64,000 nt of DNA from a phage: sequence record PV805630.1, one strand, 5' to 3'. The notes beneath the pieces are model-generated. The model was given only the letters and a program-made list of their open reading frames with translations, was not told where the DNA came from and did no database searches. Below are positions 1 through 63,314 of this stretch, piece after piece. The position numbers and the translations under genes are program-made. The first letter of the stretch is position 1. Each line of letters opens with the position of its first letter.

Positions 1-138
1 TGGCAGGGGCTACACCCTTACACTCAACCATCCCCCCCGGTATGTTGACCATGTAGCCACTACCCTACCCCACCTTACACCTTACACTGACACACACACA
101 CTCATGTCTTTGTCTTATGTGCATGTCTTCGGCACGCA

Positions 139-157
139 CGCAAGCCTTCGGCTTGCG
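139..157. promoter_or_regulatory. Perfect hairpin CGCAAGCC-TTC-GGCTTGCG (8-bp stem, 3-nt loop) in left-end leader
   Basis: Inverted repeat read directly; no T-tract follows, so not a canonical intrinsic terminator; function unassigned. Confidence 0.3.
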
Positions 158-187
158 CGCGCGCCTGCATCTTTATAAAACATTTTT

Positions 188-204
188 GACGAACTTCGTT
201 CGTC
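188..204. promoter_or_regulatory. Perfect hairpin GACGAAC-TTC-GTTCGTC (7-bp stem, 3-nt loop)
   Basis: Inverted repeat read directly; directly abuts the 207-219 hairpin. Confidence 0.3.
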
Positions 205-206
205 TA

Positions 207-219
207 CATGCTCCGCATG
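207..219 (+). promoter_or_regulatory. Candidate virion-RNAP early promoter hairpin CATGC-TCC-GCATG
   Basis: 5-bp stem and 3-nt loop with GC-TCC-GC core; template strand reads GC-GGA-GC; about 120 nt upstream of first ORF; same core recurs at 1338 and 4936. Confidence 0.45.
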
Positions 220-338
220 TTACGGATATGTGAGATCGTAAGCTCCTTATCCCATGAGCCATTGGACATGTTTCCCTTACGATGTGCCTGTGCATCCACA
301 GGCAATCTTATTAATTATCAGAGATAGGAGCTATCATC

Positions 339-662
339 ATGACTACTACCGCTACTGTACGTATGACCGCAGGAACTCTGCTGGGTACTGTTAACTCAGC
401 TGCTACTACTGTTGCAGACACCTTCGGTGCTGCAACAAAAGCAGTTGGTATGCTTAATTCTTATGTAAGTACTATGGCAAAGAAACAAGCCATTCGTACT
501 AAATTAGAAATGCATACTTTCGAAAACAAATTAGCTGAAGAAACAGCTATGAACGAGACTCTTCGTAAGAAAAGTATCGAAGAATTCTGCAAAGATCCAG
601 AAAACGCTCGTATCTACAACGCAGAATATTCAAGAATAATCGACATCCTGTCTAAAGACTAA
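339..662 (+). CDS. Hypothetical early protein (107 aa)
   Basis: ATG preceded by TAGGAG RBS; first ORF after left-end leader. Confidence 0.6.
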   Translation: MTTTATVRMTAGTLLGTVNSAATTVADTFGAATKAVGMLNSYVSTMAKKQAIRTKLEMHTFENKLAEETAMNETLRKKSIEEFCKDPENARIYNAEYSRIIDILSKD

Positions 663-671
663 ACCAATTGG

Positions 672-690
672 GGGCTCTTCGAGCCTCCTA
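672..690. promoter_or_regulatory. Hairpin GGGGCTC-TTC-GAGCCTCC (3-nt loop)
   Basis: Inverted repeat just downstream of ORF 339-662; no T-run. Confidence 0.25.
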
Positions 691-952: not shown

Positions 953-1168
953 ATGCACGCAGAAAATATCCGTATAATTGAGAATTGCTTCAGTGATAAA
1001 CCAGTAGACCTTAGCAATGCGAGAAGGTCTACAGATACAGAGTATAGAGAGTTTCTCTCCTTACTCGATGAATATCGTATGCAAGGGCATGTTGAATTAC
1101 ATGCCTATCTGCATAACTCAGGCTACTTCATGGATAAACTTGAAGCTGAGACAGGCTGTCCATTCTAA
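953..1168 (+). CDS. Hypothetical early protein (71 aa)
   Basis: ATG with TAGGAG RBS 7 nt upstream. Confidence 0.55.
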   Translation: MHAENIRIIENCFSDKPVDLSNARRSTDTEYREFLSLLDEYRMQGHVELHAYLHNSGYFMDKLEAETGCPF

Positions 1169-1350: not shown

Positions 1351-1458
1351 TTATGGATGATGTAAATGCATCCACTAATCATTGAATTTTTATCCTTTTG
1401 TTTGGGTGTTCTCGCCGACGAGTTCACCCGTCAATCACATAAATCTGGAGAGTACAAA

Positions 1459-1839
1459 ATGTCTATTCAAAAATTCACTTTCGGTCAGTCTAACGCTGCT
1501 ACTTCTACTGCTAAAGCGGATAAACCTAAAGCTCAGTTCTGGCTGAACATTGGTTATGTAGCTAATGAAGGTTCCGACGATGAGAAATTCATCTCGCTGC
1601 CTACTGGTATCCCGCTGGATACTCAGGAACCACTGCCTACTAACAGTAGCAATGCTGACTTCCGTGCTATGCGTTGTGCACAGAACGATTTGCTGGAACA
1701 GTTAATCGAATATGCTCAGAACCTGAAACCAGGTGAGGAGGGTATCATTAACCTGCAAGTTCAACTTCGTCGTGTGAAAGCAGAGGCTGCTGACATCCCA
1801 GCAGACGAGAATAAATATGCTCGGAAACTGACTTTCTAA
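1459..1839 (+). CDS. Hypothetical protein (126 aa from ATG 1459; ORF track gives 1366)
   Basis: ATG 1459 has GGAG RBS; ATG 1366 has none and would overlap the hairpin at 1338-1350. Confidence 0.55.
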
Positions 1840-1848
1840 TCAACAACT

Positions 1849-1878
1849 GGACTCCTTCGGGGAGTCTTTTATTTTTAA
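1849..1878 (+). terminator. Intrinsic terminator (GACTCC stem, TTCGG loop, T-run)
   Basis: GGACTCCTTCGGGGAGTC followed by TTTTATTTTT. Confidence 0.6.
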
Positions 1879-7668: not shown

Positions 7669-7675
7669 TAAACTG

Positions 7676-7710
7676 GCCTCATACCTTCGGGTATGGGGCT
7701 TTTATTTTTT
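7676..7710 (+). terminator. Strong intrinsic terminator (10-bp stem, UUCG loop, T-run)
   Basis: GCCTCATACC-TTCG-GGTATGGGGC followed by TTTTATTTTTT. Confidence 0.7.
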
Positions 7711-60555: not shown

Positions 60556-60581
60556 ATAAAAATAACCCCGCCGAAGCGGGG
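60556..60581 (-). terminator. Intrinsic terminator downstream of tailspike gene
   Basis: CCCCGC-TTCG-GCGGGG (minus-strand reading) followed by TTATTTTT. Confidence 0.55.
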
Positions 60582-60609
60582 CATAATTTTAGTTAACTGC
60601 TATGCCAGA

Positions 60610-63165: not shown

Positions 63166-63314
63166 ATAAACCTCTTTGTTTTTCTAGGAAACCCCTCCGA
63201 AGAGGGGATAGTGTTACAGGGAAACAGATGCATGGAATAACTTTCCTGATACCACCCATTCAGAAAGGCTATCTTAGAGATAGCCTTTAAGAAAAATTGA
63301 GTGAAAAGCAGTGC

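Follow-up and report, generated by a model that had tools for sequence, protein, structure and literature searches.

DNA mini-hairpins of the d(GCGAAGC) type, which carry a GNA triloop, are extraordinarily stable. In coliphage N4, the early promoters P1–P3 are themselves DNA hairpins with a 5–7-bp stem and a 3-nt loop, and they are extruded via negative supercoiling (PMC4496689). Extrusion and stability require a C:G closing pair and a loop with G at its 5′ and A at its 3′ position, the loop of the N4 promoters containing a sheared G:A pair, and the bases recognized by vRNAP are −11A/G, −10G, −8G and +1C; the first ~500 bp of the genome are the first DNA to enter the cell and to be supercoiled (all PMC4496689). 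In the Pseudomonas N4-like phage LUZ7, middle promoters are also hairpins, which are GC-rich, have a stem of at least 6 bp and a loop of 3–4 nt and precede a G start by ~15 bp (PMC9163698), whereas the RNAPII promoters of N4-type coliphages are AT-rich, extend from −7 to +2 and are not hairpins. UUCG-capped intrinsic terminators follow gp1 and gp2 in N4 and its relatives; the N4 homologue of the gp2 terminator listed in Table 1 reads AGGACTACC-TTCG-GGTAGTCCT, then TTTTT. We found no paper describing mapped N4 vRNAP terminators in the literature searched.

The window analysed here, a 64-kb stretch of PV805630.1, is the left end of an N4-type coliphage that is G7C-like (Gamaleyavirus), with ~94% identity to G7C over the matched parts. 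Three hairpins with TTC loops were located in it by direct reading and by scanning. A preliminary description had placed them together in one second hairpin family. We found that they are two unrelated things, one terminator hairpin (hairpin 3) and two inserted palindromes (hairpins 1 and 2; Table 1): the former appears to descend from a conserved UUCG terminator, and the latter belong to a rare, lineage-specific insert.

Table 1. Features at the left end of the window and one reference terminator
Feature	Position	Strand	Description
Insert A	89..204	.	Lineage-specific; ~116 nt between the terminal sequence (...ccttacac) and P1; from left-end alignment
Hairpin 1	131..165	.	35-nt near-palindrome GGCACGCACGCAAGCC-TTC-GGCTTGCGCGCGCGCC; template-strand tip C-GAA-G
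Hairpin 2	188..204	.	Perfect 7-bp palindrome GACGAAC-TTC-GTTCGTC; one base (205) from P1
P1	206..220	+	Canonical vRNAP early promoter hairpin ACATGC-TCC-GCATGT, then TAC-GG; predicted +1 = G224
Insert B	236..307	+	Lineage-specific; putative structured 5′ leader of the P1–gp1 transcript; outside the TTC set, same rare left-end variant
Hairpin 3	670..688	+	Post-gp1 RNA hairpin GGGGGCUC-UUC-GAGCCUCC; read as derived from the conserved UUCG-capped early terminator, its T-run having decayed (TATTAA)
gp2 terminator (reference element)	1849..1867	+	TTCG-type loop, then TTTATTTTT; an example of the ordinary early terminators of this phage

Three TTC hairpins near the left end

Perfect triloop hairpins exceed chance expectation at this end of the genome. 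We counted three with stems of at least 6 bp in positions 1–338 against 0.07 expected (P(≥3) = 0.0004; 5000 dinucleotide shuffles), and three perfect TTC-triloop hairpins of at least 7 bp in the whole 64-kb window against 0.075 expected. A C-TTC-G tip on a stem of at least 5 perfect bp occurs within the window only at hairpins 1, 2 and 3, and no further copies of the hairpins were found elsewhere in the window at up to 3 mismatches. A fourth, imperfect TTC-tipped fold at 119–137 was no better than shuffles (z = −0.7).

All three stems had been described as perfect and 7–8 bp long. This holds for hairpin 2 (7 bp) and for the core of hairpin 1, CGCAAGCC-TTC-GGCTTGCG, a perfect 8-bp stem at 139–157, but not for hairpin 3, GGGGGCTC-TTC-GAGCCTCC, which has 5 perfect pairs (673–685), then G.T, then 2 G-C pairs. 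Similarly, the positions given for the first two hairpins, 139–157 and 188–204, were correct, the former only as the core of the 35-nt near-palindrome at 131–165, and the third hairpin lies at 670–688, two off from the 672–690 first reported. The arms of hairpin 1 form an inverted repeat (131–146 against 150–165) of 16 nt each that is 88% complementary, with two mismatched positions (A.C in the + strand, G.T in the − strand).

In nearest-neighbour DNA folding, used without a special triloop bonus, positions 135–161 reached −12.0 kcal/mol on the + strand and −14.3 kcal/mol on the − strand (z = −3.2 and −4.2), and hairpin 2 reached −6.1 and −6.2 kcal/mol (z = −4.3 and −3.4). On the bottom strand all three hairpins present a C:G-closed C-GAA-G tip, as do mini-hairpins of the d(GCGAAGC) type. 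They differ from these in being longer and partly mismatched palindromes, and their stability and extrusion are predicted.

Comparison with vRNAP promoters

We compared the hairpins with the vRNAP promoter rules in the review by Lenneman and Rothman-Denes (2015; PMC4496689). P1, P2 (1338–1350) and P3 (4936–4948) of the window follow every one of them (−11A/G, −10G, −8G, +1C, closing pair and loop), and share a GCTCCGC heptamer, a top-strand C at −8 and a GG start, expected 11–12 nt from the centre of the loop. Most relatives have the same P1 hairpin, and a promoter hairpin is found just upstream of gp1 in every relative read. Hairpins 1 and 2 had been said to flank a promoter hairpin at 207; both in fact lie upstream of P1, since hairpin 2 ends at 204 and P1 occupies 206–220.

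The TTC loop does not set these hairpins apart from promoters: N4's own P1 reads GTTGC-TTC-GCAAC. In all three hairpins the top-strand C-TTC-G corresponds to C-GAA-G in the template, with a purine at −11 and G at −10. Hairpins 1 and 2 thus resemble the N4 vRNAP promoters in having a triloop, a C:G closing pair and a template loop of the form 5′-G-N-A-3′, GAA being the loop of N4 P1, and also in their location, within the first-injected few hundred bp and beside P1. The remaining features differ. The top-strand base at −8 is G in hairpin 1, T in hairpin 2 and A in hairpin 3, against C in P1–P3, and the top-strand base at +1 is G in hairpin 1 only (followed by GCGCG), with C in hairpin 2 and A in hairpin 3. 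In place of GCTCCGC, hairpin 1 has the heptamer CCTTCGG, hairpin 2 ACTTCGT and hairpin 3 TCTTCGA, and the (T)TAY-GG start is missing from hairpins 1 and 2. With regard to the stem length of 5–7 bp, hairpin 2 has 7 bp and hairpin 3 has 5 perfect bp, whereas the 8 bp of hairpin 1, set in 16-nt arms, fall outside the range. Hairpins 1 and 2 also lack the conservation of position among relatives that marks the promoters. The proposal that the TTC hairpins are alternative promoter hairpins is therefore not borne out: −8G is absent in all three and +1C in two of them.

The position of hairpins 1 and 2 bears on transcription in general. Both precede the leftmost predicted start, G224, and so should serve neither as promoters nor as places where vRNAP pauses or stops, and the sequences that follow them (CGCGCGCC/TGCATC after hairpin 1 and TACATGC after hairpin 2) contain no U-run, unlike those of intrinsic terminators. 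A scan for a sigma-70-like promoter upstream of or within positions 1–340 found none and so lends no support to the two hairpins being transcribed on the incoming genome. Of the roles suggested earlier, that of a termination signal fits hairpin 3 but not hairpins 1 and 2, which stand 5′ of the leftmost vRNAP start on the incoming genome.

The hairpin downstream of gp1

Hairpin 3 starts 7 nt past the gp1 stop codon. As RNA it is a stable, GC-rich stem-loop of 8 pairs, including one G.U, with a folding energy of −14.8 kcal/mol; no U-run follows it, the tail in the window being TATTAAGG, and it was not among the terminators called in our promoter/terminator scan. A positionally homologous hairpin follows gp1 in all relatives examined; 19 relatives have it at this position, mostly as GGAG[A/G]CTC-TTCG-GAGTCTCC followed by TTTT or TGTTTT, and the usual form is GGAGNCTC-TTCG-GAGTCTCC, then TTTT. 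Phage ZQ2 has a weak TGTTAA tail at the site. The reported absence of a T-run after the hairpins is thus correct for the window, but hairpin 3 carries TATTAA where most relatives have TTTT or TGTTTT. Judged from this alignment, the T-run is an ancestral feature that has decayed in this phage, and the TTC loop is a putative one-base deletion of TTCG.

Pairing in the stem is maintained among the relatives. In the close relatives, 97% of cells are paired, and one pair occurs as A-U (5), G.U (6) or G-C (2), although covariation among close relatives alone was not better than in shuffles. The commonest form has the G.U pair, which fits an RNA of the + strand and would be A.C on the opposite strand. 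When we added the positional homologues from Klebsiella, Erwinia and a 58%-identical phage, 7 of the 8 pairs showed compensatory changes, 98% were paired and 0 of 500 shuffles were as good, a count biased by the choice of these distant homologues, which were selected for having a hairpin there. Consistent with a terminator, the homologous site in phage SP5M carries the depositor annotation 'terminator', presumably from prediction, and the other terminators of the phage studied here are likewise TTCG-capped.

Hairpin 3 therefore resembles the UUCG-capped intrinsic terminators of N4 and its relatives in its GC-rich 8-pair stem directly after a stop codon, in its position and, with the distant relatives, in the covariation of its stem, and differs from them in its 3-nt UUC loop and broken U-run (UAUUAA). 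By contrast, hairpins 1 and 2 have nothing but the letters of the loop in common with these terminators; they lack a U-run and lie outside any mapped or predicted transcript. Hairpin 3 would act in RNA, ending or stabilizing the short P1–gp1 early transcript (about 224 to 690). Because it has UUCG minus one base and an interrupted U-run, termination at this site is probably leakier than in the relatives.

A rare insert upstream of P1

Insert A consists of a (CA)n run, the weak TTC fold at 119–137, hairpin 1, an AT-rich spacer (166–187) and hairpin 2. It is missing from 36 of 39 related INPHARED (GenBank) genomes, as well as from G7C, N4 and Klebsiella relatives, and in those 36 genomes the spacing between the terminal motif and gp1 is 44–45 nt by coordinate subtraction. 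The terminal 88 nt are 88–98% conserved over 50+ relatives. Comparison with the left ends of related N4-like genomes, which had been proposed as a check on all three hairpins, thus gave a split answer: the site of hairpin 3 is kept, but hairpins 1 and 2 are missing in 36 of the 39.

Outside this phage, the full insert was found only in a metagenomic IMG/VR genome, UViG_3300006879. Hairpin 1 is 71% identical there, with an altered 5′ arm and 20 extra nt in the loop, and region 89–130 cannot be aligned. Hairpin 2 is 100% and the AT spacer 91% identical, against 89% for gp1. This degree of conservation, at least that of gp1, may reflect constraint on hairpin 2 and the spacer; at ~90% background identity, the 17 unchanged bases of hairpin 2 are not significant. 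In PD205 and PE007, a 27-nt insert contains hairpin 2 broken by two adjacent uncompensated mismatches (TGACtcAC-TTC-GTtcGTCA). U1G has an independent 29-nt insert nearby, with AGTGTGC-TCT-GCACACT and AGCC-TTC-GGCT. Hence three independent inserts near P1 all bear C:G-closed triloop hairpins with TTC or TCT loops, and their recurrence, as seen in these genomes, hints at selection or a mechanistic bias over pure neutrality.

Searches with other parts of the region returned little. A blastn search of 86–235 against 5,426 complete E. coli genomes for a host origin of the insert gave zero matches, and Rfam at E ≤ 1 on 1–2500 gave no family. The exact hairpin 1 had 0 matches in a scan of IMG/VR. The pattern of hairpin 2 plus P1 (IMG/VR and JGI metagenomes) recovered only the contig already known to bear the insert (70,568 bp), and so did the leader pattern in IMG/VR; two additional IMG/VR matches were rejected as unrelated in sequence. 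A degenerate hairpin 2 pattern in GTDB genomes had 45 matches in unrelated taxa, which is uninformative against the ~70 estimated by chance (17 fixed bases, 596 Gb).

Two further candidates in the insert were considered and rejected. The G.T pairs on the − strand of hairpin 1 had prompted us to examine it as a minus-strand RNA, but when the arms of the insert-bearing relative were paired by hand, three mismatches were counted on the − strand as well. An ORF at 117–233 (38 aa) spans the hairpins, in a region that is unalignable in the one close relative.

Possible roles of hairpins 1 and 2

We consider it probable that hairpin 3 is an early terminator hairpin and that hairpins 1 and 2 are dispensable, extrusion-prone palindromic insertions, neutral or mildly modulatory in effect. 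Hairpins 1 and 2 would then be DNA palindromes in the insert of a rare sub-lineage, placed immediately upstream of P1, and would be both dispensable and fast-evolving. Because the N4 work links a C-GAA-G tip in the template to stability and extrusion, the two hairpins are expected to extrude; by the same sequence rules, gyrase-supercoiled, first-injected DNA should present them as cruciforms. The 8- or 16-bp stem and the mismatched palindrome may behave differently in extrusion from the 5–7-bp promoter hairpins. The insertions may be neutral or mildly modulatory and may mark a hot spot for small palindromic insertions. Any effect would be exerted in cis on P1, by competing for negative supercoils or absorbing them, and modulation of P1 by the two hairpins is possible.

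A stronger version, in which hairpins 1 and 2 adaptively regulate P1 in cis, as cruciforms in the first-injected supercoiled DNA, seems unlikely to us. Such cruciforms could aid the opening of P1, by providing an adjacent melted region together with the AT-rich spacer, or could buffer supercoiling so that P1 fires only at high gyrase activity. The setting would suit such a role, since the first ~500 bp enter and supercoil first (PMC4496689) and the C-GAA-G template tip fits the published rules of extrusion and stability. However, in a short domain a palindrome of 35 bp would take up ~3 superhelical turns and would more plausibly hinder P1. The distribution of the hairpins is similarly divided. 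Hairpin 2 is one base from P1 in all four genomes that have it, hairpin 2 and the spacer are well kept between the two insert-bearing genomes (100% and 91%), and independent C:G-closed triloop inserts recur within ~25 nt of P1 (U1G; PD205/PE007), but 36 of 39 relatives with the same P1 have neither element, the nearest relative with the insert has a rearranged hairpin 1, and the mismatches that break hairpin 2 in PD205/PE007 are uncompensated.

That recurrence could also be given a more general meaning. The stretch of ~25 nt directly upstream of P1 might be a hot spot at which N4-type coliphages acquire C:G-closed triloop hairpins time and again, which work as auxiliary cruciforms or vRNAP holders, a proposal that we rate as distinctly unlikely and that is supported by the three inserts, those of this window and UViG_3300006879, of PD205/PE007 and of U1G. 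If it were true, the auxiliary cruciforms would tune how the first promoter to be injected is activated by supercoiling and SSB, or would hold one of the few vRNAPs injected, and infection would have, at its very first step, a 'rheostat' made of DNA structure and acting in cis.

Use of hairpin 1, hairpin 2 or both as extra vRNAP sites, either as weak alternative promoters or as decoy or landing hairpins for one of the ~four injected vRNAPs, is improbable. The template loop GAA, as in N4 P1, is present together with −11A, −10G and the C:G closing pair, the 7-bp stem of hairpin 2 lies within 5–7 bp and hairpin 1 has the correct +1, but all lack −8G, a specifically recognized base (PMC4496689), and neither the GCTCCGC heptamer nor the TTAT/TAC-GG start region of P1–P3 is found. 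Moreover, the stem of hairpin 1 measures 8–16 bp, a start directed by hairpin 2 would land inside the P1 hairpin, and hairpins 1 and 2 are not kept in relatives. The middle promoters of LUZ7 (PMC9163698) offer a second model, as GC-rich hairpins with stems of at least 6 bp and 3–4-nt loops; hairpins 1 and 2 are like them in being GC-rich or long-stemmed triloops distinct from early-promoter hairpins. This model is countered by the AT-rich, non-hairpin RNAPII promoters of N4-type coliphages and by the absence of hairpins 1 and 2 in close relatives whose RNAPII genes are the same; unlike the LUZ7 hairpins, they are known from sequence alone.

A role in RNA is very improbable. Here, hairpins 1 and 2 would block or stabilize rightward transcripts of the last genes that read into the right-end copy of the repeat or into concatemers. 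The left end is probably part of a direct terminal repeat, as the G7C record marks 1–1160 as containing the terminal repeat, and in permuted records the rightward genes stop ~140–200 nt short of the terminal motif, an interval that contains no obvious terminator. Both hairpins would be very stable in such transcripts (RNA folds of −26.9 kcal/mol for hairpin 1 and −8.3 kcal/mol for hairpin 2), but they are not followed by a U-run, the + strand RNA of hairpin 1 contains A.C mismatches, PD205 and PE007 show no compensatory change, and relatives without the insert face the same read-through.

Finally, the notion that hairpins 1 and 2 serve the genome end as a replication origin or in packaging, through terminase recognition, is the hardest to sustain and highly improbable, for although both are found in the first 205 nt from the physical left end, beside the AT-rich block at 166–187, and stable GNA-triloop hairpins occur in some single-stranded-phage origins, 36 of 39 relatives share the terminal sequence, P1 and gp1 without having them, the conserved terminal 88 nt (88–98% in 50+ relatives) thus being kept where the hairpins are missing from nearly all, and an essential function of the end would not sit in one or two genomes, nor be rearranged between them.

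Implications and a neighbouring insert

The main value of these comparisons is one of clarification, in that a TTC/UUCG-like loop alone does not reveal the function of a hairpin in N4-type genomes: one and the same loop sits on a genuine promoter (N4 P1), on ordinary terminators and on what appear to be non-functional look-alikes. Promoters are told apart by −8G, the GCTCCGC heptamer and the GG start, which together make a simple rule for early-promoter annotation in Schitoviridae. The extrusion-prone palindromes that recur beside P1 would, if they alter P1 firing, offer a natural handle on the supercoil gating of the first N4 transcription.

The same rare left-end variant contains a second insertion, insert B, which folds into a CGTAAG...CTTACG helix plus a GCCTGTG-CATC-CACAGGC hairpin. 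Insert B and the gp1 leader of Erwinia phage MIF8 are homologous and show one compensatory change (C-G to A-U).

The left end and its TTC-loop hairpins

The first 3 kb of the window match G7C-like coliphages (Schitoviridae, Gamaleyavirus), with phage G7C the top match at ~94% identity. Because this match begins at base 1 of G7C's linear record, we take the window to start at the physical left terminus of an N4-type genome. The terminal repeat is contained in 1-1160 according to the G7C record, and that of N4 is 390-440 bp (PMC3715699).

TTC hairpins are far more frequent than chance predicts. Across the 64-kb window we observed three of at least 7 bp (0.075 expected), and perfect triloop hairpins of at least 6 bp occurred three times in 1-338 (0.07 expected, P about 4e-4). 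An imperfect fourth TTC fold at 119-137 was no better than shuffles. The sequence confirmed the perfect stems of hairpin 1 (8 bp) and hairpin 2 (7 bp) and the absence of a T-run after either. The former is a mere core of a 35-nt near-palindrome (131-146 versus 150-165) interrupted by two mismatched positions (A.C in the + strand, G.T in the - strand). Other parts of the preliminary description needed correction. Hairpin 3, reported as perfect at 672-690, is displaced by two bases and has five perfect pairs, then G.T, then two G-C pairs; hairpins 1 and 2, said to flank the promoter hairpin, both lie upstream of it.

Features of the window, with identity to the metagenomic contig UViG_3300006879
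Feature	Position	Strand	Sequence or promoter bases	Identity
Left end	1-88			90%
Insert, left part	89-130			21%, not alignable
Hairpin 1	131-165 (core 139-157)		C-GAA-G, -11A, -10G; top-strand -8 G, incorrect; +1 correct	71%
AT spacer	166-187			91%
Hairpin 2	188-204		C-GAA-G, -11A, -10G; top-strand -8 T, incorrect; +1 wrong	100%
P1	206-220		ACATGC-TCC-GCATGT then TAC-GG	93.5% (205-235)
Leader	236-338			93%
gp1	339..662			89%
Hairpin 3	670-688		C-GAA-G, -11A, -10G; top-strand -8 A, incorrect; +1 wrong	
P2	1338-1350		GACGC-TCC-GCGTC then TTAT-GG	
gp2 (RNAPII cofactor)	1366..1839			
TTCG-capped terminator, T-run	1849-1867			
P3	4936-4948		GGTGC-TCC-GCACC then TTGT-GG	
TTCG-capped terminator, T-run	7675-7700			
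TTCG-capped terminator, T-run	60565-60582	-		
TTCG-capped terminator, T-run	63192-63207	-		

The TTC hairpins lack some promoter features

Scanning the window for hairpins whose top-strand tip reads C-TNC-G revealed three with all promoter features in common, the early promoters P1, P2 and P3 of the virion RNA polymerase (vRNAP), which alike contain a GCTCCGC heptamer, a top-strand -8 C and GG at +1/+2. We applied the rules of a 2015 review of N4 polymerases (PMC4496689), in which extrusion and stability require a C:G closing pair and a template-strand loop with 5'G and 3'A, and vRNAP specifically recognises -11A/G, -10G, -8G and +1C. By these rules, the TTC hairpins are predicted to be extrusion-competent look-alikes and not vRNAP promoters; the heptamer and the TTAT-GG region were absent from all three. 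P1 of N4 itself is GTTGC-TTC-GCAAC followed by TTATGGAC, so a TTC loop is no obstacle to promoter function, and no separate family is defined by the letters of the loop. Rather than the single second hairpin family first proposed, the three comprise a conserved putative terminator (hairpin 3) and a rare insert (hairpins 1 and 2).

We also observed a promoter-like hairpin shared with G7C, GCTGT-TCC-ACAGC (906-918) followed by TTAC-GGG, upstream of ORF 953..1168. Its loop is TCC, its -8 base C and its start GG, with a T:A rather than C:G closing pair; it could be a vRNAP promoter that is weak or no longer active.

Hairpin 3 is a conserved post-gp1 element

A hairpin was present at the homologous site in 19/19 relatives extracted; except in G7C, it starts a few bases past the stop codon of gp1. 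Its usual form is GGAG[A/G]CTC-TTCG-GAGTCTCC followed by TTTT or TGTTTT, and N4 has GGAGGCTC-CTCG-GAGTCTCC followed by TTTT. One loop base has been lost (TTCG to TTC) in the window and G7C, the ZQ2 loop is TTAG, and the tail reads TATTAA in the window versus TTTTAA in G7C. The site is annotated as a terminator in the SP5M record. Comparison thus points to an ordinary, slightly degraded terminator, and the degraded U-run may make it leaky; no mapped vRNAP terminators were found in the accessible literature.

In close relatives 97% of cells are paired, and the variation at one pair, A-U (5), G.U (6) or G-C (2), is not better than shuffles. Distant positional homologues have different stems beneath a UUCG or UCCG loop: TGGCACTC-TCCG-GAGTGCCA in Klebsiella phage BaqKoxi, GGGGCACC-TTCG-GGTGCTCC in a 58%-identical IMG/VR phage and GCCTACTC-TTCG-GAGTAGGC in Erwinia phage MIF8. 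Adding these homologues, which were selected as hairpins at that position, gave compensatory changes in 7/8 pairs, matched by 0/500 shuffles. The G.U pair of the commonest form is tolerated in + strand RNA and becomes an A.C mismatch on the opposite strand, which argues that the hairpin acts as RNA, on the rightward transcript.

In G7C, an extra ~90-nt segment (469-555) separates the gp1 stop from the hairpin 3 homologue. Within it, ATCCCCA-GAAA-TGGGGAT with a trailing TTT resembles a terminator and AACGC-TCC-GCGTT a promoter hairpin. The segment is a further case of hairpin-rich insertion in the early region.

Hairpins 1 and 2 lie in a rare insert

In a left-end alignment of G7C, N4 and most relatives, ...ccaccttacac(g/c)ttacac runs directly into the P1 hairpin; the window has about 116 extra nucleotides before P1 (89-204) and about 76 after it. 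By subtraction of coordinates, the conserved terminal motif lies 44-45 nt from gp1 in 36/39 distinct INPHARED genomes, the exceptions being U1G (+29) and PD205 and PE007 (+27). With the insert as query, blastn gave partial matches in these three genomes only, plus an Erwinia phage at the downstream leader. The full insert was found only in UViG_3300006879, a 70.6-kb IMG/VR metagenomic contig (Ga0079226_10000045); only four genomes are informative on hairpin 2 and only two on hairpin 1. Neither hairpin had a counterpart in E. coli or Rfam, or a second copy within the window.

In hairpin 1, the window's 5' arm complements the contig's 3' arm exactly, which suggests that the 16-bp palindrome was once perfect. 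With a different 5' arm and 20 more bases in its loop, the contig does not keep the triloop hairpin. Hairpin 2 of PD205 and PE007 (TGACtcAC-TTC-GTtcGTCA) contains two neighbouring mismatches without compensation. The insertion there (about 701-727 in PD205) lies between duplicated copies of ATGC and leaves a P1 stem of 4 bp in place of 6 bp; P1 may not work in these phages. Only a few bases from this position, U1G has another insert (about 76-104), with AGTGTGC-TCT-GCACACT and AGCC-TTC-GGCT. Counting the window's insert, three small palindromic insertions have arisen independently in about 25 nt, those of the other phages upstream of or inside the P1 hairpin, which suggests a hot spot. A microsatellite-like (CA)7 run, tgACACACACACACtc, at the insert's left edge (89-104) is missing from the contig, the sole relative with the insert.

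Possible roles of hairpins 1 and 2

We moderately favour a reading in which hairpins 1 and 2 are dispensable look-alike insertions and hairpin 3 an ordinary terminator; that the first two are rare and rapidly rearranged argues for their dispensability. They are nevertheless stable palindromes with a template-strand C-GAA-G tip beside P1, in the first-entering DNA (the first ~500 bp of the genome; PMC4496689). Gyrase-imposed negative supercoiling would drive them out as cruciforms, and the arm on the template strand would withstand melting by SSB, a property described for promoter hairpins. Any effect would be exerted in cis on P1, by local melting or by competing for superhelical energy, and it is unlikely that they are adaptive modulators. 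Less likely still is a weak promoter or decoy, since vRNAP should not use hairpins that lack -8G and the start region. An RNA-level role is similarly improbable. Both hairpins lie 5' of G224, the leftmost predicted vRNAP start, and no sigma-70-like promoter was found upstream of them; untranscribed on the incoming genome, they could not pause or stop vRNAP there, as had been suggested. An end-function reading is improbable too, and the hairpins are not needed for such functions: almost every relative has the same terminal 88 nt but neither hairpin. Of the functions first suggested, termination fits hairpin 3 only.

Other early-region elements

In the P1-gp1 transcript, the 5' leader contains a second lineage-specific insert (236-307; also sequences L009, 1400-1470, and L014, 1502-1575). 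It folds into a CGTAAG...CTTACG helix and then a GCCTGTG-CATC-CACAGGC hairpin, and had no match in Rfam. It is ~83% identical to the gp1 leader of MIF8, from another genus (Efbeekayvirus), with one compensatory change (C-G to A-U), and could be a conserved regulatory RNA swapped between distant N4-like phages.

Two public records have left-end oddities that are probably assembly artefacts: in CU10EC (about 545-690) copies of the P1-gp1 start stand on both sides of a run of N, and in F22 (OP870143, 7-159) the best gp1 5'-end match is inverted at the record start, besides a normal copy. Both should be excluded from left-end comparisons.

The motif TAGATAGATAG(A/C)TA occurs at 701-717 and 1219-1235, downstream of the hairpins after gp1 and ORF 953..1168. 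ATCTACTTTAGGA (1255-1268; ATCTACTTTAAAGA in N4) is kept in most relatives, upstream of the next gene or P2. These may be middle-promoter or other regulatory motifs. Just upstream of ATCTACTTTAGGA lies GATGC-GAAGCA-GCATC (1238-1258), kept in G7C, whose top strand contains GCGAAGC, the classic stable GNA mini-hairpin sequence.
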